Below, in pieces: positions 10,989-23,264 of a stretch of DNA of 64,000 bases; position 1 is the stretch's first letter, and every line of letters starts with the position of its first letter. The position numbers and the translations under genes are program-made. The stretch is from Roseateles sp. (GTDB lineage Bacteria; Pseudomonadota; Gammaproteobacteria; Burkholderiales; Burkholderiaceae_C). The DNA lies in NCBI RefSeq assembly GCF_047654785.1, contig NZ_JASGKQ010000002.1, positions 577,268 through 641,267 of the forward strand, in the 5' to 3' direction. The notes under the pieces are model-generated. The model was not told the DNA's origin, ran no database searches, and worked only from the letters and a program-made list of their open reading frames with translations.

Positions 10989-13775
10989 ATGAAACCGCGC
11001 CATTTCGCCCTGATCCTGCTGGCCGCCGCCCTGGCCGGCTGCAGCCAACGCACGGAGCAGGACCTGCTCGCCGCCGCCCAGAAGCGCCTGGCGGAGAAGG
11101 ACAACGCGGGCGCCGTCATCGAGCTGAAGAACCTGCTGCAGCAAAGCCCCGACAACGCCGTCGCCCGGCAGCTGCTGGGCCAGTCGCTGCTGGAGGCGGG
11201 CGACCTGGCCGGCGCCGAGATCGAGCTGCGCCGCGCCTGGGAGCTGGGCGCGCCGCGCGACGCGCTGGCGCCGCTGCTGGCGCAGGCGCTGCTGTACTCC
11301 GGCCAGTCGCGCAAGCTGATCACCGAGTTCGCGGACCAGAGCCTGGCCGACCCGCAGGCCGGCGCCACGCTGCAGCAGCACCTGGCGCTGGCCTACCTCG
11401 CGCAAGGCAACCTGCCTGAGGCCAAGGCCGCCGCCAGCCGCGCGCTGCAGCTGGCGCCGCAGTCCGACGCGGCCGCCATCGCCGGCGCGCGCGTCAAGCT
11501 GGCCAGCCGGCTTCCCGACGAGGCGCTGGCCATGCTGGACCAGGTGCTGCAGCGCAGCCCGCAGTCCGCCCCGGCGCTGCTGCTGAAGGCCGAGGTGCTG
11601 CTGGCGCGCGGCAAGGCCGAGGAGGCCGAGCCGCTGCTGGCGCAGGCGGTGGCGGCCGACCCGGGCGGCTACGACGCCCGCTCGCTGCTGGTGCGCCTGG
11701 CCTTCGCCCGCCAGCAGGTGGACGCCGCCGCCAAGCTCGTCGACGACATGCCGCCCGCCGCGGCCAAGAAGCCGCAGGGCCGCTTCCTGCAGGCACAGGT
11801 GGCGCTGGCCCGCGGCGACGCCGCCAAGGCCAGCGAGCTGGCGCTGCCGCTGCTCAAGCTGATGCCCAGCTACCTGCCGCTGCTGCGCCTGGCGGCCGGC
11901 GCGCACCAGCAGCTCGGCGAGCTGGCCGACGCCGAGAACCTGTTGGGCCAGGCGCTCAAGCTCGCGCCGGACGACCCCGCGCTGCGCCGCCAGTCCGCCG
12001 GCCTGCAGCTGCAGCGCCACCAGCCGGCCAAGACGCTGGAGACGCTGCGCCCCGTGCTGGACAGCGGCCGCGCCGACGCCGAGACGCTGATGCTGGCCGG
12101 CCGGGCGCAGCTGATGCAGGGCGACTTCGAGGCCGCCGACCAGGCCTTCGGCGCGGCGGCCCGGCTGCGCCCGGACGACGCCAAGACCCAGGCCGCGCTG
12201 GCGCTGGCGGCCATCGCGCGCGACGGCGCCACGCCCGGCGGCGCCGCGCGGGCCAAGGCCGACGCGGCGATCGTCCAGCTGCGCGAGCTCGCCGCCAAGG
12301 ACGGCGGCGGCAACTACGACCTGATGCTGGTCAACGCGCTGATGCGCCGCCAGGACTTCCCCGCCGCGCTGGCGGCGCTGGACAGGCTCGCGCCCAAGAT
12401 GAAGGGCAGCCCCGTGCCCGACGCGCTGCGCGGCCGCATCCTGCTCGTGCGCAAGGACGCGGCCGGCGCGCAGGCCGCGTTCGACGCCGCGCTCAAGGCC
12501 GACCCCGGCTACCTGCCCGCCGCACTGGGCCGGGTGTCGCTGGACCTGCAGGCCGGCCGCGGCGACGCCGCCGTCAAGCGGCTGGAAAGCTTCATCGCCG
12601 AGCACAAGAGCGCGCCGCAGGCCCGCCTGGCGCTGGCCGAGCTGCTGGTGCAGACCCGGGCGCCCGCCGAGCGCGTCACCGAGGTGCTGGCCGCCGCCGT
12701 GCGCGAGGAGCCCACCGAGCCGGCGCTGCGCCTGGCGCTGATCGACCACCGGCTGCGCCTGGGCGACGCGGCCGCCGCCGCGCAGGCGGCGCAGGAGGCC
12801 ACCGCCGCGCTGCCGCTCAACCCCGACCTGCTGGAGCGCCTGGCGCGCACCCAGCTCGCCGCCGGCGACCGCGCCCAGGCCGGCAAGACCTACACGCAGC
12901 TCACCACGCTGGCGCCGCAGCGCGCCGCCGGCTGGCTCGGGCTGGCGCAGCTGCGCTTCATGGACAAGGACGACGCCGGCGCCGAGCGCGAGGTGAAGCG
13001 CGCGCTGGAGGCCGAGCCGGGCGCGGCGGTGGCGCAGCGGCTGCTGATCCAGCTCGCGCTGCGCCAGGGCCGCACCGACGAGGCGCTGGCCGCGCTGCAC
13101 GAGCGCCAGAAGCAGCATCCGCAGGAGGCCTTCGCGTTCGTCGCCGAGGCCGAGGTCGAGATGGGCCGCAAGAATCCGGATGCCGCCATCGCGCTGCTGC
13201 GCAAGGCCACCACGCTGCGCGTGCCGGGCGACGCCGCGCCACGCCTGCTGGCGGCGCTGCTGGCGCACCGGAAGCGCGACGAGGCGCTGGCCTTCGAGGC
13301 GCAATGGCGGCAGGCGCATCCGCAGGACAGCGCCTTCGCCGCCGCCGCCGCCGACCTGCTGCTGACCCGCGGCGACCTGGACGGCGCGCTGGCCCGCTAC
13401 GAGGCGCTGCTCCAGCGCAACCCCGACGCCGTCCCGCTCATCAACAACGTCGCCTGGCTGCGCAGCAAGCAGGGCAAGCCCGGCGCGCGCGAGCTGGCCG
13501 AGCGCGGCCTGGCGCTGAAGGCGGAGGACGCGGCGCTGCGCGACACCTACGCCACCGTGCTGGCCAACGAGAAGCAGTTCGGCCGCGCCGTCAGCCTGCA
13601 GCGCCAGCTCGTCGCCGAGCAGCCCGAGCAGCCGGCCTACCGCCTGAACCTGGCGCGCATCCTGATCCAGTCCGGCGACAAGGCCGCCGCCCGCTTGGAG
13701 CTGGACGGCCTGGCCAGGCTGGGCGCGAAGTTCCCGCAGCAGCGGGACGTGGAGGCGCTGCTGAAGACGCTGTGA
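10989..13775 (+). CDS. TPR-repeat lipoprotein, PEP-CTERM system PrsT-like
   Basis: Lipobox LLAAALAGC. About 930 aa of TPR repeats. The N-terminal pattern AVIELKNLLQQSPDNAVARQLLGQSLLEAGD resembles the PEP-CTERM TPR lipoprotein family as I recall it. Confidence 0.75.
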   Translation: MKPRHFALILLAAALAGCSQRTEQDLLAAAQKRLAEKDNAGAVIELKNLLQQSPDNAVARQLLGQSLLEAGDLAGAEIELRRAWELGAPRDALAPLLAQALLYSGQSRKLITEFADQSLADPQAGATLQQHLALAYLAQGNLPEAKAAASRALQLAPQSDAAAIAGARVKLASRLPDEALAMLDQVLQRSPQSAPALLLKAEVLLARGKAEEAEPLLAQAVAADPGGYDARSLLVRLAFARQQVDAAAKLVDDMPPAAAKKPQGRFLQAQVALARGDAAKASELALPLLKLMPSYLPLLRLAAGAHQQLGELADAENLLGQALKLAPDDPALRRQSAGLQLQRHQPAKTLETLRPVLDSGRADAETLMLAGRAQLMQGDFEAADQAFGAAARLRPDDAKTQAALALAAIARDGATPGGAARAKADAAIVQLRELAAKDGGGNYDLMLVNALMRRQDFPAALAALDRLAPKMKGSPVPDALRGRILLVRKDAAGAQAAFDAALKADPGYLPAALGRVSLDLQAGRGDAAVKRLESFIAEHKSAPQARLALAELLVQTRAPAERVTEVLAAAVREEPTEPALRLALIDHRLRLGDAAAAAQAAQEATAALPLNPDLLERLARTQLAAGDRAQAGKTYTQLTTLAPQRAAGWLGLAQLRFMDKDDAGAEREVKRALEAEPGAAVAQRLLIQLALRQGRTDEALAALHERQKQHPQEAFAFVAEAEVEMGRKNPDAAIALLRKATTLRVPGDAAPRLLAALLAHRKRDEALAFEAQWRQAHPQDSAFAAAAADLLLTRGDLDGALARYEALLQRNPDAVPLINNVAWLRSKQGKPGARELAERGLALKAEDAALRDTYATVLANEKQFGRAVSLQRQLVAEQPEQPAYRLNLARILIQSGDKAAARLELDGLARLGAKFPQQRDVEALLKTL

Positions 13776-16806: not shown

Positions 16807-17424
16807 CTACAGCTTCGGAATCCGGATCCGACTCACCATCAGCGACCCGGACAGCGCGAACAGCAGCACCAGCGGGTGCAGCCGGAACCCGGCGATCCAC
16901 CACACGCCGCCCCACAGCGCGTCGCCGATGGCGCCCTGCGCCGCGGCGGCCCACAGCACCGCCACCAGCAGCATGGACGTCGGGATGGGCGTGCCCTCGA
17001 AGTAGGCCACCTTGTCCGAGCCGGCGCTGAGCTTCTCGGCCGTCACGTTGTAGCGCGCCAGCCGGCTGACGCCGCAGGCGACGAAGAACACCAGCACGAT
17101 GCGGTCGTACAGGCCCTGCATGCCGCAGCCGTAGGCGATGACGGCCGGCGCGACGCCGAACGAGATGACGTCGGCCAGCGAATCCAGCTCCCGGCCCAGC
17201 GCCGAGCTCTTCTGCCGCCAGCGCGCGATGCGGCCGTCGAGCACGTCGAAGGCCAGCGCCAGCGGGATCAGCGCGCAGGCGTATTGCAGGTGCCGCGTGT
17301 CGCCGCTCTGCAGAAAGCTCATCACCGCGAACAGCGCGCCCATGCCGGCGCAGGCGTTGCCCAGCGTGAACCAGTCGGCGAGGTGGAACTCGCGGATCAT
17401 CGAGAACGGCTTGGGCTTGTCCAT
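16807..17424 (-). CDS. CDP-alcohol phosphatidyltransferase family protein (PssA-like)
   Basis: Start at MDKPKPFSMIREF. Complete motif DGRIARWRQKSSALGRELDSLAD (DGx2ARx8Gx3Dx3D). Multiple TM helices. Confidence 0.85.
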   Translation of the reverse strand: MDKPKPFSMIREFHLADWFTLGNACAGMGALFAVMSFLQSGDTRHLQYACALIPLALAFDVLDGRIARWRQKSSALGRELDSLADVISFGVAPAVIAYGCGMQGLYDRIVLVFFVACGVSRLARYNVTAEKLSAGSDKVAYFEGTPIPTSMLLVAVLWAAAAQGAIGDALWGGVWWIAGFRLHPLVLLFALSGSLMVSRIRIPKL

Positions 17425-17438
17425 GGCAGCCGCGATTG

Positions 17439-18539
17439 TCAGGCCGTGGCGGGCGGCTCCGGCTCGGGCGGCGGCTTCAGCCGCAGCCAGGCCTTGCGGG
17501 CCAGGTGCCGCAGCAGCAGGCCGCCGGGCATGCGCAGCCAGTGGGAGCGCACGTACAGGGCGAGCCGGGCGGCCCCGGTCAGCGGGCGGTCGCAGCTGGG
17601 GTGGTCGGGCATCAGCGCGCGGGCATAGCAGGCGTCCAGCAGCGGCTGGCTGGCCGGGCTGCCGGCGCAGGCAGCCTGCAGCCCCGCGGCGGGCACGGGC
17701 GTGCCCAGCAGGCGCGTGGTGTAGCGCAGCGCGAGGGCCAGCGGCCGGCCCAGGCCGAGCGAGCGGGCACGCGGCAGCAGCGCGTCCCAGAAGCCGGGGT
17801 CGCGGCCGAAGTCCCTCAGCAGCGCGTCGAGGTCGAACAGGTCGCGCAGCCCCTTCTCCAGCTCGCCCTCGTGGAACAGGTGGGTGGCGCTGTGCAGCAC
17901 CATGGTGGCCGGCGCCAGCACGCGCACGCCGGGGTGGCCCGGCAGCTCCTGCGCGTCCTCGAACAATGCCGCCGTGTTCACCCGGATGCGCGCCGTGGGC
18001 GGCAGGATGGTGTGGTGGACGTCGAGGCTGCTGCCGCGCTGCTCGTGGGTCAGCGGCGGGATCTCGTGCATCCACTCGCGGTAGTAGCGCTCGTCATAGG
18101 CGTCCAGGTCGTCCTGGAAGGACCAGCCGTGCGCGAGCAGGGCGGCTTCGATGTCGGCGATGCGGTCCCGGGGCACGAGGATGTCGACGTCGCCGAACAC
18201 GCGGCCCGCGCTGGCCGGCAGGCCGGCCATCAGGTAGGCGCTGCCTTTCAGCAGGATGGGCGCCACGCCCAGGGGCTGGAGCGCGGCCTGGATCCGGCTC
18301 ACCTCCCAGTGCGTCAGCTTGGCCTGGCGCGCGGCGGTCATCAGCGCGGCGTGGAGGTGGTGGCGGGGGCCGGGCGGCACCTGTTCGAGCCAGGGCTTCA
18401 GCGCGACGGCCAGTTTGGCCAGCAGCAGGCCCCGGCGCGCCTGCCGCAGCAGCAGGTCCCAGTCCAGCGGCCGCAGGCGCAGCGCCGACGCCGGGTCCAG
18501 CAGCACGCGCAGCAGCAGCGGGGCGGATGCGGTCTTCAT
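17439..18539 (-). CDS. Nucleotidyltransferase family protein (NTP_transf_5-type)
   Basis: Start at MKTASAPLL overlaps the upstream stop (ATGA). NTase signature KGSAYL...FGDVDILVPRD. Confidence 0.8.
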   Translation of the reverse strand: MKTASAPLLLRVLLDPASALRLRPLDWDLLLRQARRGLLLAKLAVALKPWLEQVPPGPRHHLHAALMTAARQAKLTHWEVSRIQAALQPLGVAPILLKGSAYLMAGLPASAGRVFGDVDILVPRDRIADIEAALLAHGWSFQDDLDAYDERYYREWMHEIPPLTHEQRGSSLDVHHTILPPTARIRVNTAALFEDAQELPGHPGVRVLAPATMVLHSATHLFHEGELEKGLRDLFDLDALLRDFGRDPGFWDALLPRARSLGLGRPLALALRYTTRLLGTPVPAAGLQAACAGSPASQPLLDACYARALMPDHPSCDRPLTGAARLALYVRSHWLRMPGGLLLRHLARKAWLRLKPPPEPEPPATA

Positions 18540-19447
18540 GCGGCGTCCGCCAATTGGTCGATGCGCTGCACGGCCTCGGCCAGCGACGAGTACTGGAATT
18601 CCAGGCAGTCGCAGCGGTCGACCAGGTCGGCCGTGGCCTCGAAGCCCGGGCGGCCATGGAGGTCGTAGTTGAACGCCTGTTCGGCCAGCAGCAGCAGCAT
18701 GCGGGCCTTGGGCACGTCGGCCAGCGCCGGCGCGGCGCCAGCGGTGTAGCGCGGCGTGATGATCCAGGCCGGCTGCGCGGTTTCGGCCACGCGGGCCACG
18801 CTCTGCGCGGGGGCCTTCATCAGCGCGAGCGTCCCCTTGGTGGTGTCCGGCACCGGGCGCGTCAGCTCGGCCTGCGGCGCGAACCGCCGGATCGCGTCGA
18901 TGGAGACGTTCTTCAGGTTGACCGGCCGGCCCATGCCGGTCACCCGGCCGCCGGCCGGGTCGTACAGGGTGATTTCGTCGGACATCAGCCGCCAGCCCCG
19001 GTGCGCCAGCGCGGCCGTCAGCGTGCTCTTGCCCGAGCCGGGGGGGGCCGGCATGACCAGGGCCCGGCCGTCGCGCTCCAGCGCGGCGGCGTGGTAGGAC
19101 AGGTAGGGGTGGGCCATCGTGCTGACGGCCCAGTTCAGCCCCCACTCGATCATGTGGAAGCCCTGCTCCGCGGGCAGCGGGCTGAAGGCGGGCTCGCCGT
19201 CGGCGTAGAAGCGGGCCATGGGCTTGACCCAGCGGCGCAGGCCGCCTTCCCGCCGCACTTCGAGGTGGAAATCCGCGAAGTCCTCGGCCGTGCCGAGGTC
19301 GAAGTCGGCATAGAGGAAGGCCAGGTCCTCGGCGACCCGGTCCAGGTCCGAGCGCAGGCGTGCGACGAAGGGCGGCACCTTGACGACCAGCTCGCCGCGG
19401 GCCAGCCGGCGGCGCAGATCCCGGGGCGCCAGGTCGCGGAGCTTCAT
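18536..19447 (-). CDS. HprK-related P-loop kinase (type A by context)
   Basis: Walker A is PAPPGSGKSTLTAAL. Size is about 300 aa. It sits downstream of a PqqD-like gene with an ATGA overlap. Confidence 0.8.
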   Translation of the reverse strand: MKLRDLAPRDLRRRLARGELVVKVPPFVARLRSDLDRVAEDLAFLYADFDLGTAEDFADFHLEVRREGGLRRWVKPMARFYADGEPAFSPLPAEQGFHMIEWGLNWAVSTMAHPYLSYHAAALERDGRALVMPAPPGSGKSTLTAALAHRGWRLMSDEITLYDPAGGRVTGMGRPVNLKNVSIDAIRRFAPQAELTRPVPDTTKGTLALMKAPAQSVARVAETAQPAWIITPRYTAGAAPALADVPKARMLLLLAEQAFNYDLHGRPGFEATADLVDRCDCLEFQYSSLAEAVQRIDQLADAA

Positions 19448-19740
19448 GGCGGCGGGGGGAGCTGCCCGACCAGCCCCAGGTCCCGCAGCGCGCGCAGCTG
19501 GCGGTCGAAGAAGGCGGCCGCCGTTTCTGCGTCCATCAGCTCGGGGGTCGCGTCGGCCAGCTGTTCGACCAGTTGCGCCACCGATCGCGGCTGCCGGGCC
19601 AGCAGTTCGAGGAGTTCGATGGACAGCGCGTCGACCAGGTGGGTGTCGCCGCAGCCGTCGTCGTAGACGGCGCCCAGCCCCTCCCAGTCACGCCAGCAGA
19701 TGTCGGCCGGCCGATGGATGCACCACAAGGGCTCCCGCAT
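19444..19740 (-). CDS. PqqD-family peptide chaperone (RRE-like)
   Basis: 98-aa acidic protein with the THLVDALSIELLELL...SVAQLVEQL winged-helix pattern typical of PqqD-like proteins. Translationally coupled to the kinase gene. Confidence 0.75.
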   Translation of the reverse strand: MREPLWCIHRPADICWRDWEGLGAVYDDGCGDTHLVDALSIELLELLARQPRSVAQLVEQLADATPELMDAETAAAFFDRQLRALRDLGLVGQLPPPP

Positions 19741-19780: not shown

Positions 19781-20494
19781 TCAGCTCAGGCGGCCGATGA
19801 AATTGCTTTCCAGATAGCGTCGGACGTCTTCGGCATACCAGGTCTTGCCGTCCGGGCCCTTGCCCGAGCCGGCGGCGACGATGTTGCCGAGCGTGGTCAG
19901 CTGGTTCGACGAGAAGGTGTCGATCACGCACACGTCGGTCTTCGTCGTGTTGCTGATGCGGTAGTTCAGCCAGGCGACCAGCATCGCCTTCTGGGCGGCG
20001 GAGTAATTGCCGGTCAGCGCGTCCCAGATCTTCACGTTCTTGCCGATCCCGGCGGTACCGTTGGCGCTGCCGCAGGCGCTGCCCACTGTGTACTTCTTGA
20101 CGGTGCTGACCTTCAGGTCGGCGCAGCTGATGGAGTTCTTGCGCCAGCCATCGCAGCTTGCGTAGTCGGTTTTGCCGGTCCGGTACTTGGCGACCCACTG
20201 TGCGAGGGTGTAGCAGGTCACCGTCGGCGCTGCGGCCGCCTTGCGTGTGTACTGGCTGGCATTGGTGCCGACCAGCGTCTGCACCGAGCCCCAGGCGGAG
20301 GCCGAGAAGCACTTGCCCTGGCTGTTGGTCGCCAGCACGGGGCGGCTGCTCAGCGTCAGCGCCACGGGCACGACGCCCGCGCCCATCTTGATGAAGCGGC
20401 GGCGGCGCTCCGAAGCCGCCTGGCGGGCGGACACGTCAACATGCGCTGGCGCGCCGGGCGCGGGCTGCGAGTCGTTCGGTTGGTGTTCGCTCAT
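19781..20494 (-). CDS. Secreted Cys-rich protein with twin-arginine signal (237 aa), unknown family
   Basis: Start at MSEHQ, with GAGG 8 nt upstream. Tat motif is ERRRRFIKMG followed by a hydrophobic stretch and PVLA/TN. The mature part has six Cys. Local GC is markedly lower than in the neighbours. Confidence 0.65.
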   Translation of the reverse strand: MSEHQPNDSQPAPGAPAHVDVSARQAASERRRRFIKMGAGVVPVALTLSSRPVLATNSQGKCFSASAWGSVQTLVGTNASQYTRKAAAAPTVTCYTLAQWVAKYRTGKTDYASCDGWRKNSISCADLKVSTVKKYTVGSACGSANGTAGIGKNVKIWDALTGNYSAAQKAMLVAWLNYRISNTTKTDVCVIDTFSSNQLTTLGNIVAAGSGKGPDGKTWYAEDVRRYLESNFIGRLS

Positions 20495-20564: not shown

Positions 20565-20593
20565 CACACAAAGCCCGGCAGGGCACGCCGGGC
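20565..20593 (-). terminator. Rho-independent terminator after the ypfJ-like gene
   Basis: On the minus strand the sequence reads GCCCGGC-gtgccct-GCCGGGC followed by TTTGTGTGG. Confidence 0.55.
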
Positions 20594-20628: not shown

Positions 20629-21501
20629 TCACAGGGCCGTCGCGGAGAAGGTGTCGCAGACCTTCAGGTCGCCCGCCTCCAGGCCGCGCTTGAACCACCG
20701 CGTCCGCTGCGCGCTGCTGCCGTGGGTGAAGCTTTCCGGCACGATCGAGCCGCTGCTGCGCTTTTGCAGCGTGTCGTCGCCGATCTGGGCGGCGGCGTTC
20801 AGCGCTTCCTCGATGTCGCCCTGCTCCAGCCAGCCCTTGCCGCGCTGCGAGTGGTTGGCCCAGACGCCCGCGTAGCAGTCGGCCTGCAGTTCCAGCCGCA
20901 CGCTCATGGCGTTCATCTCGCGCTCGGAGACGCGGCCGCGGGCGCGGTCGAGCTTCTCGGTGGTGCCCATCAGGTTCTGCAGGTGGTGGCCCACCTCGTG
21001 GGCGATGACGTAGGCCTGCGCGAAGTCGCCGGGGGCGCCCAGGCGCTCGCGCAGCGTGTCGTAGAAGCTCAGGTCGATGTAGACCTTGCGGTCGGCCGGG
21101 CAGTAGAACGGGCCCATGGCCGCCTCGCCGGCGCCGCAGGCGGTGGGGTAGCGGCCGCGGAAGATGACCAACTGCGGCGCCGGGTACTGCTGGCCGCTGC
21201 GCTGGAAGTAGGCGCCCCAGACGTCTTCCGTGTCCGCCAGCACGACGCTGACGAAGCGCCCGGCGGCGTCCTGCGGCGGGGCGGTGGCGGTTGGCGCCGC
21301 CTGCGGCAGGGGGGCGCCTCCGCCGCCCTGCAGCAGCCCCAGCACGGTCAGCGGGTTGACGCCAAGCACCCAGGACGCCAGCAGCGCGATGGCCACGCCG
21401 CCGATGCCGATGCCGCGCCCGCCGATCGGCAGTCCGCGGCCTCCGCTGCTGTTGCGGGCGTCCTGGACGTTGTCACTCTCGCGCTGGCCTTCCCATTTCA
21501 T
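20629..21501 (-). CDS. Neutral zinc metallopeptidase, YpfJ family
   Basis: N-terminus [14 protein letters not shown]. One TM segment. HExxH in [11 protein letters not shown]. Confidence 0.85.
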
Positions 21502-21563: not shown

Positions 21564-23264
21564 TCAGGGCCTGAGCTTCAGGTCGTGCCCCTGGGCCTGG
21601 GCCGGCGCGGGCAGGCCGGCGATGCCGGCGAGCGTGGGCGCCAGGTCGGCCACTTCGACGCGGTTCTTCATCTCGCCCTGGCCGACGTAGCCCGGCCCCC
21701 AGAACAGCAGCGGCACGTGGGTGTCGTACCGGTAGGGGCTGCCGTGCGTGCTGCCGCCGGGGCGGTAGCTGTAGATCCAGTGCGGCTTGAGCACGATCTG
21801 CAGCGGCGCGGCGCGGGTCGGGTCGAAGGACTTGCGCATGGCGTCGAGGTAGGGCGTCGCCGTGTCGGTGCCCAGCAGCTGCTCGCGCGTGAACACGGCC
21901 GCGACGCCGGGCAGCTTCAGCAGTTCGTCGCGGGCGGTGGCCTGCACGTCGGCGGCGTTCAGCCGGTGCTCGGCGATCAGCGCGTCGTTCAGCAGCAGGC
22001 CGGCGGCGGAGAAGCCGCGCGCCAGCTGGGCGACGCCGAATTTCTCGTTCAGCGCCGTGTTGACCACCGCCAGCGACACCGCGCCGGCGAAGCGGTGGGC
22101 GTCCCGGCCCTGCGTGGCGGCCCACTCGGGCGTGTCGGTGAAGCCGTGGTCGGCCGTCAGCGCCAGCACGTAGTTGCCGGCGCCCACGGTCTGGTCGAGG
22201 AACCGGAAGAAGGCCTGCAGGTGGCGGTCCAGGTGCAGCAGGTGGTCCTGCGACAGGCGGGACTCGGGGCCGAACGCGTGGTTGATGTAGTCGTGGCTGG
22301 ACAGGCTCACCGACAGGATGTCCTGCACGCCGCGCTGGCCCAGCTGCTCGTTCTTCACGGCGGCGCGGGCGAAGGCCAGCGTCAGCTCGTCGCCGAAGGG
22401 CGAGGGCAGGATGTTGCCGTAGAAGCGCGGGCCGGGCGCGTCCATCTTGTCGCCCAGCACGGCGGGCAGGCGGTTGCCGTTGCCGCTGGCCACCTGCCAG
22501 GGCTGGCCGTCCGGCACGGAGCGGGCGTAGGCGCAGGCGGACGTGGTCTGGGGGCAGTCGAACCCGGGCAGCAGCGGCGTCCAGGCCTTCTTGAAGAAGG
22601 CGTCGGCGGGCTTGGCGGCGTTGAAGTCGGTCACCCATTGCGGGTGGGCGGCCATGTAGTAGGTGCTGGAGGCGAAGCGGCCCGTCTCGCTCATGTACAT
22701 GTAGGCCGTGCCCTTGTGCCCGGCGGGCAGGATGGCGCCGCGGTCCTTGCCGGAGATGCCGATCACCTTGGAGGCCGGCGAGCGCGTGCGCAGCACGTCG
22801 CCCAGCGTTTCCACCTTCAGGCTGCGCGGGCTGGTGCCGGCCAGCGGGGCGGTCGGGCTGTCGATGTACCGGTAGGCGGCGTCGCCGGTGTTGTAGACGG
22901 GGGCGCCGGTGGCGGGGTCGCGCCATTCGTTGCTGATGATGCCGCTGCGCTGCGGGTAGGCGCCGGACAGCATCACCGCATGGCCGGCCGCCGTGACCGT
23001 GTGGCCGTGGGCGTAGTGCGCATCGGAGAACCAGCGGCCGTGGTCGAGGAAGCGGGCGAAGCCGTCCGGCGCGAGCAGGTCGCGGTAGCCGGTGACCTGG
23101 CGCATGGGCAGGCCGTCGATGACCACCAGGACCAGCAGCTTCGGCGCCTGCTGCGCCTGCCGTGGCGGCACCGTGGCGGATGGGGGCGTGCTGCAGGCGC
23201 TGAACAGTGTCGAGGCGGCAGCGGCGAGGGCCAGGCTCAATAGGCGGCGGCGGGAGTTCATCAT
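21564..23264 (-). CDS. Alkaline phosphatase/nucleotide pyrophosphatase superfamily lipoprotein
   Basis: Start at MMNSRRRLLSLALAAAASTLFSAC (lipobox). AP-superfamily pattern VVIDGLP...GHTVTAAGH...LTADHGF. Confidence 0.85.
   Translation of the reverse strand: MMNSRRRLLSLALAAAASTLFSACSTPPSATVPPRQAQQAPKLLVLVVIDGLPMRQVTGYRDLLAPDGFARFLDHGRWFSDAHYAHGHTVTAAGHAVMLSGAYPQRSGIISNEWRDPATGAPVYNTGDAAYRYIDSPTAPLAGTSPRSLKVETLGDVLRTRSPASKVIGISGKDRGAILPAGHKGTAYMYMSETGRFASSTYYMAAHPQWVTDFNAAKPADAFFKKAWTPLLPGFDCPQTTSACAYARSVPDGQPWQVASGNGNRLPAVLGDKMDAPGPRFYGNILPSPFGDELTLAFARAAVKNEQLGQRGVQDILSVSLSSHDYINHAFGPESRLSQDHLLHLDRHLQAFFRFLDQTVGAGNYVLALTADHGFTDTPEWAATQGRDAHRFAGAVSLAVVNTALNEKFGVAQLARGFSAAGLLLNDALIAEHRLNAADVQATARDELLKLPGVAAVFTREQLLGTDTATPYLDAMRKSFDPTRAAPLQIVLKPHWIYSYRPGGSTHGSPYRYDTHVPLLFWGPGYVGQGEMKNRVEVADLAPTLAGIAGLPAPAQAQGHDLKLRP

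Follow-up and report, generated by a model that had tools for sequence, protein, structure and literature searches.

A twin-arginine signal protein as a candidate precursor for an HPr-rel-A cassette in Roseateles

Within the 64,000-nt stretch of Roseateles DNA analyzed here (the window), an operon begins with the gene for a 237-residue protein, P0001, and continues with the genes of an HPr-rel-A cassette. We conclude that P0001 may well be the dedicated precursor, or substrate protein, of this adjacent cassette and that it would be modified before export. The argument for a likely substrate is that the leader of P0001 is specifically conserved and that genes carrying it stand constantly in front of PqqD, kinase and nucleotidyltransferase genes.

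Results

The P0001 operon and its surroundings

Four genes follow P0001 on the same strand, encoding PqqD_rel_X, HprK-related kinase A, an NTP_transf_5 protein and a short PssA-like protein. The junctions from P0001 to the PssA-like gene are 40 nt, ATGA, ATGA and 14 nt, the two overlaps joining the PqqD gene to the kinase gene and the kinase gene to the PF14907 gene behind it. The features of this region are:

16807..17424, minus strand: short PssA-like CDP-alcohol phosphatidyltransferase of 205 aa, a second paralogue, 14 nt after the nucleotidyltransferase gene
17439..18539, minus strand: NTP_transf_5 nucleotidyltransferase-fold protein (PF14907, 185 bits; start at 18539 taken from the ATGA overlap)
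18536..19447, minus strand: HprK-related kinase A with P-loop GSGKST (TIGR04352, 359.1 bits against a cut-off of 200)
19444..19740, minus strand: HPr-rel-A peptide chaperone of the PqqD family, which is an RRE (TIGR04353, 54 bits; cut-off 35)
19781..20494, minus strand: putative precursor/substrate gene, encoding the 237-aa P0001 plus stop codon, not assigned to a known family
20573..20593, minus strand: terminator-like hairpin downstream of ypfJ, with a new transcription unit starting after it
20629..21501, minus strand: YpfJ-family zinc metallopeptidase, directly upstream of the P0001 gene on the same strand

Judged by profile matches and gene order, the three enzymes clearly belong to the HPr-rel-A system (TIGR04352, TIGR04353): its two marker genes beside P0001 exceed the curated cut-offs by far and, together with a PF14907 gene, keep the customary order. 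As catalogued by NCBIfam/TIGRFAMs, this system is defined by its enzymes alone and not by a precursor. Pfam and NCBIfam models detected no peptidase and no exporter encoded in the operon. A search with the PqqD gene product for longer, fused relatives found none, a result of little weight.

The YpfJ-family protein was considered as a leader peptidase and rejected. Its gene is adjacent at only 7 of 29 related loci, so the arrangement resembles local synteny, and the terminator-like hairpin separates that gene from the precursor gene. Farther upstream on the same strand is a PafA-like alkaline phosphatase homologue (21564-23201, minus strand; 414 bits, under the 650-bit cut-off). On the other side of the operon, 3 kb away, lies a gene for a PrsT-type TPR lipoprotein of the XrtA/PEP-CTERM system (10989-13775, plus strand; TIGR02917, 591 bits against a cut-off of 312), with no exosortase genes in between.

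The precursor gene and its product

P0001 consists, in order, of an n-region, RRRRFIK, an h-region, the c-region SRPVLA, a mature part with six cysteines (C62, C94, C114, C124, C141 and C189) and the C-terminal residues NFIGRLS. A first-pass annotation made from the letters had read the sequence correctly. Its translation, from MSEHQPNDSQPAPGAPAHVDVSARQAAS-ERRRRFIKMG to NFIGRLS and the stop, is that of 19781-20494 on the minus strand; the six cysteines are present in the mature part; and the long polar stretch ahead of the arginines measures 28-29 residues and is net acidic. The annotation recognized no family, and profile searches with P0001 likewise gave no Pfam or NCBIfam match at E <= 1. 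The h-region (residues 37-49) is rich in Gly, Ala, Val, Pro and Thr. The parts of the gene referred to below are:

20408..20494, minus strand: n-region, residues 1-29, polar, net charge -3, without Tyr or Trp (mean top-residue frequency 0.60)
20330..20407, minus strand: RRRRFIK (residues 30-36) with h-region and c-region SRPVLA (37-55), the candidate leader or docking site (mean top-residue frequency 0.85)
20285..20311, minus strand: motif C62-F-S-A-S66-A-W-G-S70, 7-15 residues past the predicted A55/T56 site, the candidate modification site
19784..20230, minus strand: folded, mostly helical mature domain in the AlphaFold model (residues ~89-237), with AWLN and C-terminal YL..N motifs

The ATG at 20494 is the true start of the gene: homologues share the opening residues MSE..., and a GAGG precedes the ATG by 8 nt. 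Extending the ORF upstream to 20698 would cross the terminator-like hairpin at 20573-20593. No sigma-54 promoter of the form TGGCAC-N5-TTGCW with two or fewer mismatches lies upstream of the P0001 gene, and matches to this pattern in the whole window are fewer than expected by chance.

A word-indexed search recovered 44 relatives of P0001, the named ones solely from Roseateles and Paucibacter, and an exhaustive profile search of 1.84 billion proteins found 703 related representative clusters (E <= 1e-3). The 150 best of these 703 are nearly all 170-300 aa long, the exceptions being a few short fragments and one protein of 341 aa.

The gene also stands out by a dip in G+C content, which the first-pass annotation had noticed and taken to suggest different ancestry or different constraints. 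The dip is real, although smaller than the annotation's hand counts had suggested: 300-nt windows fall to 0.63-0.64, against 0.70-0.78 nearby, and G+C over the whole gene is 0.664, against 0.71-0.75 for the neighboring genes. It arises from first codon positions, where the mature part has a G+C fraction of 0.48 compared with ~0.70 in the neighbors. At third positions the value for P0001 is 0.90, close to the 0.89 of the PqqD gene and the 0.93-0.98 of the other genes compared. Thr, Ser, Lys, Asn and Tyr, residues that raise A/T at first codon positions, are abundant in the mature part, so the dip reflects amino-acid composition and gives no sign of a separate history. A foreign origin of the gene was rejected as unsupported by this third-position usage.

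Linkage of the precursor to the cassette

Of 301 genomes from the same family of bacteria, 33 gave matches to the P0001 family profile, 36 in all, spanning at least 23 genera. Each of the 36 is followed on its own strand, 0.4-1.8 kb downstream, by an HprK_rel_A match; the weaker of the 36 cover merely the first 60-80 residues of ORFs of ~200-250 aa. HprK_rel_A itself (TIGR04352, above the cut-off) is present in 66 of the 301 genomes, and cassettes with it occur in 62 of 401 sampled Pseudomonadota genomes.

The reverse linkage was read in the DNA at 57 other HprK_rel_A loci, of which 30 came from the family sample and 27 from a phylum-wide one. At 50 of the 57, an ORF of ~150-290 aa lies directly upstream of the PqqD gene, each with an acidic n-region, an RRR[LF][LI]K motif and an h-region, and a leader-bearing ORF is located elsewhere in the cluster at three more. 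Four of the 57 cassettes have no leader-bearing ORF in the DNA read: L090, L092 and L094, where 5-6 kb was read on each side, and L096, where a contig end leaves ~1.4 kb of upstream DNA; for a span of 5-6 kb the number is put at two to four. Because the sampled genomes are interrelated, these counts in both directions overstate the number of independent cases. The substrate role that the first-pass annotation had proposed, and the linkage of orthologues to PqqD and kinase genes on which it depended, are thus supported by context from both sides.

The arrangement varies at a few loci. In L091 (about 8046, plus strand), L095 (about 5375, minus strand) and L093 (about 3116, plus strand), PqqD is not directly preceded by the leader-bearing gene; such off-position genes are found behind the nucleotidyltransferase gene, divergent, or ~2.6 kb upstream. 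In three genomes, two tandem leader-bearing precursor genes precede a single PqqD/kinase/nucleotidyltransferase set (G250:C417:757-1767, G077:C22:65261-66165 and G279:C57:125710-126670), which resembles multi-precursor peptide clusters.

A specific leader shared by unrelated proteins

Conservation was measured over 52 relatives (alignment A3) as the mean top-residue frequency of each region. The signal region (residues 30-55) reaches 0.85 and the motif at 62-70 reaches 0.89, compared with 0.60 for the n-region and 0.52 for the folded domain. Signal peptides are usually the least conserved segment of a secreted protein, and the order of conservation in the P0001 family is the reverse of that in ordinary secreted proteins. 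Within the signal region, R31, R32, K36, G38, T47, L48, S50, P52 and A55 are invariant. The n-region keeps its length, with 28-30 residues before the RR in 45 of the 52 relatives, and its negative charge (median -3), which is seen in 96% of the relatives and 88% of the wider precursor set.

The assignment to the Tat pathway stands on inspection of the motif (R31-R32-R33-F34-I35-K36, h-region 37-49 and S50-R51-P52-V53-L54-A55), since neither Tat-signal HMM (TIGR01409, PF10518) was reported for P0001 at E <= 1 in a search whose HMMER filters often drop short weak matches. The genome encodes TatC (PF00902, 234 bits) and has other Tat-like signals. Nonetheless, an HMM built from the leader only scored 99.3 bits on the P0001 ORF and 18.9 bits on the next-best ORF genome-wide, showing that the leader is not a generic Tat signal. 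That next-best ORF (G000 C2|-|680406|681056, in reverse-complement coordinates) matched HMM positions 18-42 with an E-value of 0.0024.

Profile-profile comparison separated two kinds of relationship among the precursors. Two Burkholderiales subfamilies, the SGFQS-type precursors of related genera (E 1.3e-18, 169 columns) and the SG..SG..S-type precursors (E 4.9e-13, 168 columns), are full-length homologues of the P0001 family. The SCWxSF-type precursors, from other classes in the phylum-wide sample, have 36 columns in common with it, all of them in the leader (E 7e-10). By this comparison, the same leader is carried by an unrelated mature domain in other classes of Pseudomonadota. Modularity of leader and core is a hallmark of ribosomally made, post-translationally modified products. 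Ten precursors were compared with Pfam and NCBIfam, and no model matched any of them.

These results bear on the first-pass suggestion that the long n-region is the leader bound by the PqqD-like protein. The n-region is indeed kept in length, acidic and moderately conserved, but conservation is much higher in the RR, h and c regions (0.85 against 0.60), and it is they that the unrelated precursor families have in common. Residues 1-55 contain no Tyr or Trp, so a [Y/W]xxP motif is absent from the leader. A complex prediction pairing PqqD (alignment A2) with residues 1-85 of P0001 (A3) gave values of 0.01 and 0.08 against a mark of 0.32 and weighs neither way on binding.

An invariant motif behind the predicted cleavage site

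The segment from C62 to S70 has the highest mean top-residue frequency of the regions compared. S66, A67, W68, G69 and S70 are invariant in all 52 relatives and C62 has a frequency of 0.98; among the six cysteines, only C62 and C189 are nearly invariant. The invariant serines of the family are those at positions 50, 66, 70 and 80. In the wider set, the pattern C-x3-[ST]-[GAS]-[FW..]-x-S follows the leader in 18 of 49 precursors, and other precursor subfamilies have Ser-rich segments at the same place.

The C-terminal serine, which the first-pass annotation had put forward as the acceptor, is not a family feature. Of the 52 relatives, 22 end in Ser and 7 in Thr, the other 23 ending in Ala, Arg, Pro, Val or Ile, and a C-terminal Ser is found in ~6 of 41 precursors of the wider set. 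S70 or S66 is the more likely acceptor than Ser237 by analogy with LPP clusters, described below, in which the modified serine lies right behind the leader cleavage site; S66 and S70 are 11-15 residues past the predicted VLA55/T56 site.

The AlphaFold model of P0001, built with 52 sequences, places this motif ahead of the folded domain. Residues 1-87 are of low confidence, with a pLDDT of 40-49 per 10-residue block in the motif region, whereas the domain has a pLDDT mostly of 82-94, dipping to ~65 at residues 181-200. Because the low-confidence residues 62-87 precede a confident domain, the invariant motif probably sits in a flexible stretch between leader and domain. The domain has no detectable relative in the PDB by Foldseek (best E-value 1.1) or among 48,161 chains (best Z 2.7), and in the ESM Atlas the model matched unnamed Pseudomonadota clusters only.

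The PssA-like gene behind the cassette

The 205-aa PssA-like gene is probably cotranscribed with the cassette here. It is one of two pssA-like genes in the genome and is 36% identical to the other, a 274-aa copy between ilvC and leuA (L097:1411-2235, plus strand) that is presumably the housekeeping one. By hand tally, the short paralogue occurs at 60% identity or more in ~106 of the 301 family genomes, of which ~71 have no HprK_rel_A; conversely, 31 of the 66 HprK_rel_A genomes have no short paralogue. The gene follows the cassette in ~20 genomes and is located elsewhere on the chromosome in ~15 co-occurring genomes, and in several cases (G053, G129, G003, G204 and G221) the adjacent copy is in the opposite orientation. 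None was seen behind cassettes of other orders in the short flank available. This distribution largely rules out the PssA-like gene as a cassette component; it is a frequent neighbor but not cassette-specific.

Discussion

Comparison with known systems

The closest characterized system to the P0001 cassette is the linear polyphosphorylated peptide (LPP) cluster of Bacillota, composed of LppA, LppB, LppK, LppN, LppS and LppD (Popov et al., Nat Commun 2026, PMC13381572). Its leader-bearing precursor is acted on by three proteins, the RRE LppB, the HprK-like kinase LppK and the NTP-transferase LppN. LppK adds up to four phosphates to core Ser3, right behind the leader cleavage site, and does not accept Thr or Tyr, whereas LppN had no detectable activity or product and its deletion had no visible effect (PMC13381572). 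The same study notes that the only known role of HprK-like kinases that have a discrete RRE partner is as peptide-serine kinases, and that the recognition proteins of lasso and LPP systems bind a [Y/W]xxP leader motif (PMC13381572).

Both systems have the core of RRE, HprK-like kinase and NTP-transferase, and both place a serine, the LPP acceptor or the P0001 candidate, close behind the leader cleavage site; leader removal by a signal-peptidase-type enzyme, as in LPP, is proposed for P0001 as well. They differ in the precursor, a 237-aa protein with a folded domain instead of a peptide of ~72 aa, and in its leader, a twin-arginine signal without the YxxP motif. The P0001 operon also has no SpI-like leader peptidase and no MsbA-like ABC exporter, and its host belongs to the Pseudomonadota, not the Bacillota. 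By gene content and precursor sequence, therefore, the cassette falls outside the LPP definition, with its SpI-like peptidase, exporter, YxxP leader and short precursor. By analogy, it probably works like an LPP cluster in which the Tat pathway and the general signal peptidase replace the dedicated exporter and peptidase.

The same trio, with B1 as the RRE, an HprK-like kinase and a nucleotidyltransferase, occurs in paeninodin-type lasso peptide tailoring. The P0001 operon and its flanking genes encode no lasso cyclase or B2 protease, however, and the C-terminal Ser used by the paeninodin-type kinases is not conserved in the P0001 family, which on sequence grounds places the cassette outside the definition of phosphorylated lasso peptides by all three of these features. 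Some Tat substrates have dedicated signal-peptide chaperones, TorA with TorD being an example. P0001 would resemble this pair in that a cytoplasmic partner is presumed to sit on the twin-arginine signal until maturation, after which the finished protein is exported. It would differ in that its partner has a PqqD/RRE fold and is not of the TorD family, and in that maturation would be a covalent modification and not cofactor insertion.

A model for P0001 modification and its alternatives

In the model that we favor, the cytoplasmic PqqD-like protein would dock on the leader, consisting of the acidic n-region and the RRRRFIK, h and c segments, and the HprK-related kinase would then phosphorylate a serine of P0001. 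The NTP_transf_5 enzyme may elaborate the phosphoserine, after which the folded, modified protein would exit by the Tat pathway and the general signal peptidase would cut off the leader after VLA55. Several points stand against a substrate role. The leader has no [Y/W]xxP motif, so the docking mode would have to differ from that of lasso and LPP systems; a folded protein of 237 aa far exceeds the size of every proven substrate of these enzymes; the LPP nucleotidyltransferase had no detectable activity; and two to four of the 57 other cassettes have no such ORF in the DNA read. More tentatively, and with somewhat less confidence than that P0001 is a substrate at all, we suggest that the family applies RiPP logic to whole folded secreted proteins. 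The twin-arginine signal would double as the leader that recruits PqqD, a Ser behind the cleavage site would be phosphorylated, perhaps repeatedly, and decorated by the nucleotidyltransferase, Tat would export the finished protein, and the same leader would have become attached to two or more unrelated mature domains across Pseudomonadota.

The target of paeninodin-type HprK-like kinases is a C-terminal Ser, and a paeninodin-like scheme, in which PqqD binds the long n-region and the kinase phosphorylates Ser237, draws on this precedent and on the nearer clade, whose sequences end in IGRLS, IGRLT, IGKVS or IGSVS (29 of 52). We nevertheless find it very unlikely. A residue other than Ser ends 30 of the 52 relatives, ~6 of 41 other precursors end in Ser, LppK does not accept Thr, the last residue in 7 of the 52, the invariant serines lie at 50, 66, 70 and 80, and conservation of the n-region is below that of the RR, h and c regions. 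The position of the PssA-like gene, 14 nt behind the nucleotidyltransferase gene here and following the cassette in ~20 genomes, together with its being a second paralogue distinct from the copy between ilvC and leuA (36% identity), could instead point to a Kennedy-pathway-like lipidation in which the kinase, nucleotidyltransferase and PssA-like enzyme together link a protein serine to a phospholipid head or tail. That scheme is harder still to credit given the distribution of the paralogue: ~71 of the ~106 genomes that have it are without HprK_rel_A, 31 of 66 cassette genomes are without the paralogue, the gene is elsewhere in ~15 co-occurring genomes and reversed in several adjacent cases, and none was seen in the short flank behind the cassettes of other orders.

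A different division of labor, in which the PqqD-like protein is merely a signal-peptide chaperone, the kinase and nucleotidyltransferase target a sugar, lipid or surface polymer, and exported P0001 uses or binds their product outside, would account for the Tat-like signal itself being the most conserved part and for a cassette that encodes no peptidase or exporter. It would also agree with the lack of a detectable protein product of LppN and with the PrsT gene 3 kb away, which suggests nearness to surface-polysaccharide systems. We consider it unlikely, although less so than the schemes above, because HprK-like kinases with a discrete RRE are known solely as peptide-serine kinases (PMC13381572), because it gives the invariant Ser-rich segment behind the cleavage site no role, and because a leader common to unrelated mature domains is a better fit with a leader-directed enzyme. 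Finally, local synteny inside one bacterial family can persist by descent, and P0001 might be an ordinary secreted protein that is beside the cassette by chance. This is the least probable of the readings that we considered: every one of the 36 family matches, from at least 23 genera, is cassette-linked, the same arrangement recurs in other classes with an unrelated mature domain, and the leader is specific (99.3 against 18.9 bits).

Implications

In the literature that we searched, we found no description of the HPr-rel-A system or of Tat-signal proteins as cassette partners, and no substrate of HprK_rel_A cassettes is named there. If P0001 is such a substrate, RRE-guided modification would extend from small peptides to full-size exported proteins, and use of the Tat pathway would have a rationale unrelated to cofactors. 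The cassette would also provide a handle on the role of PF14907 enzymes, which were silent in the LPP study.
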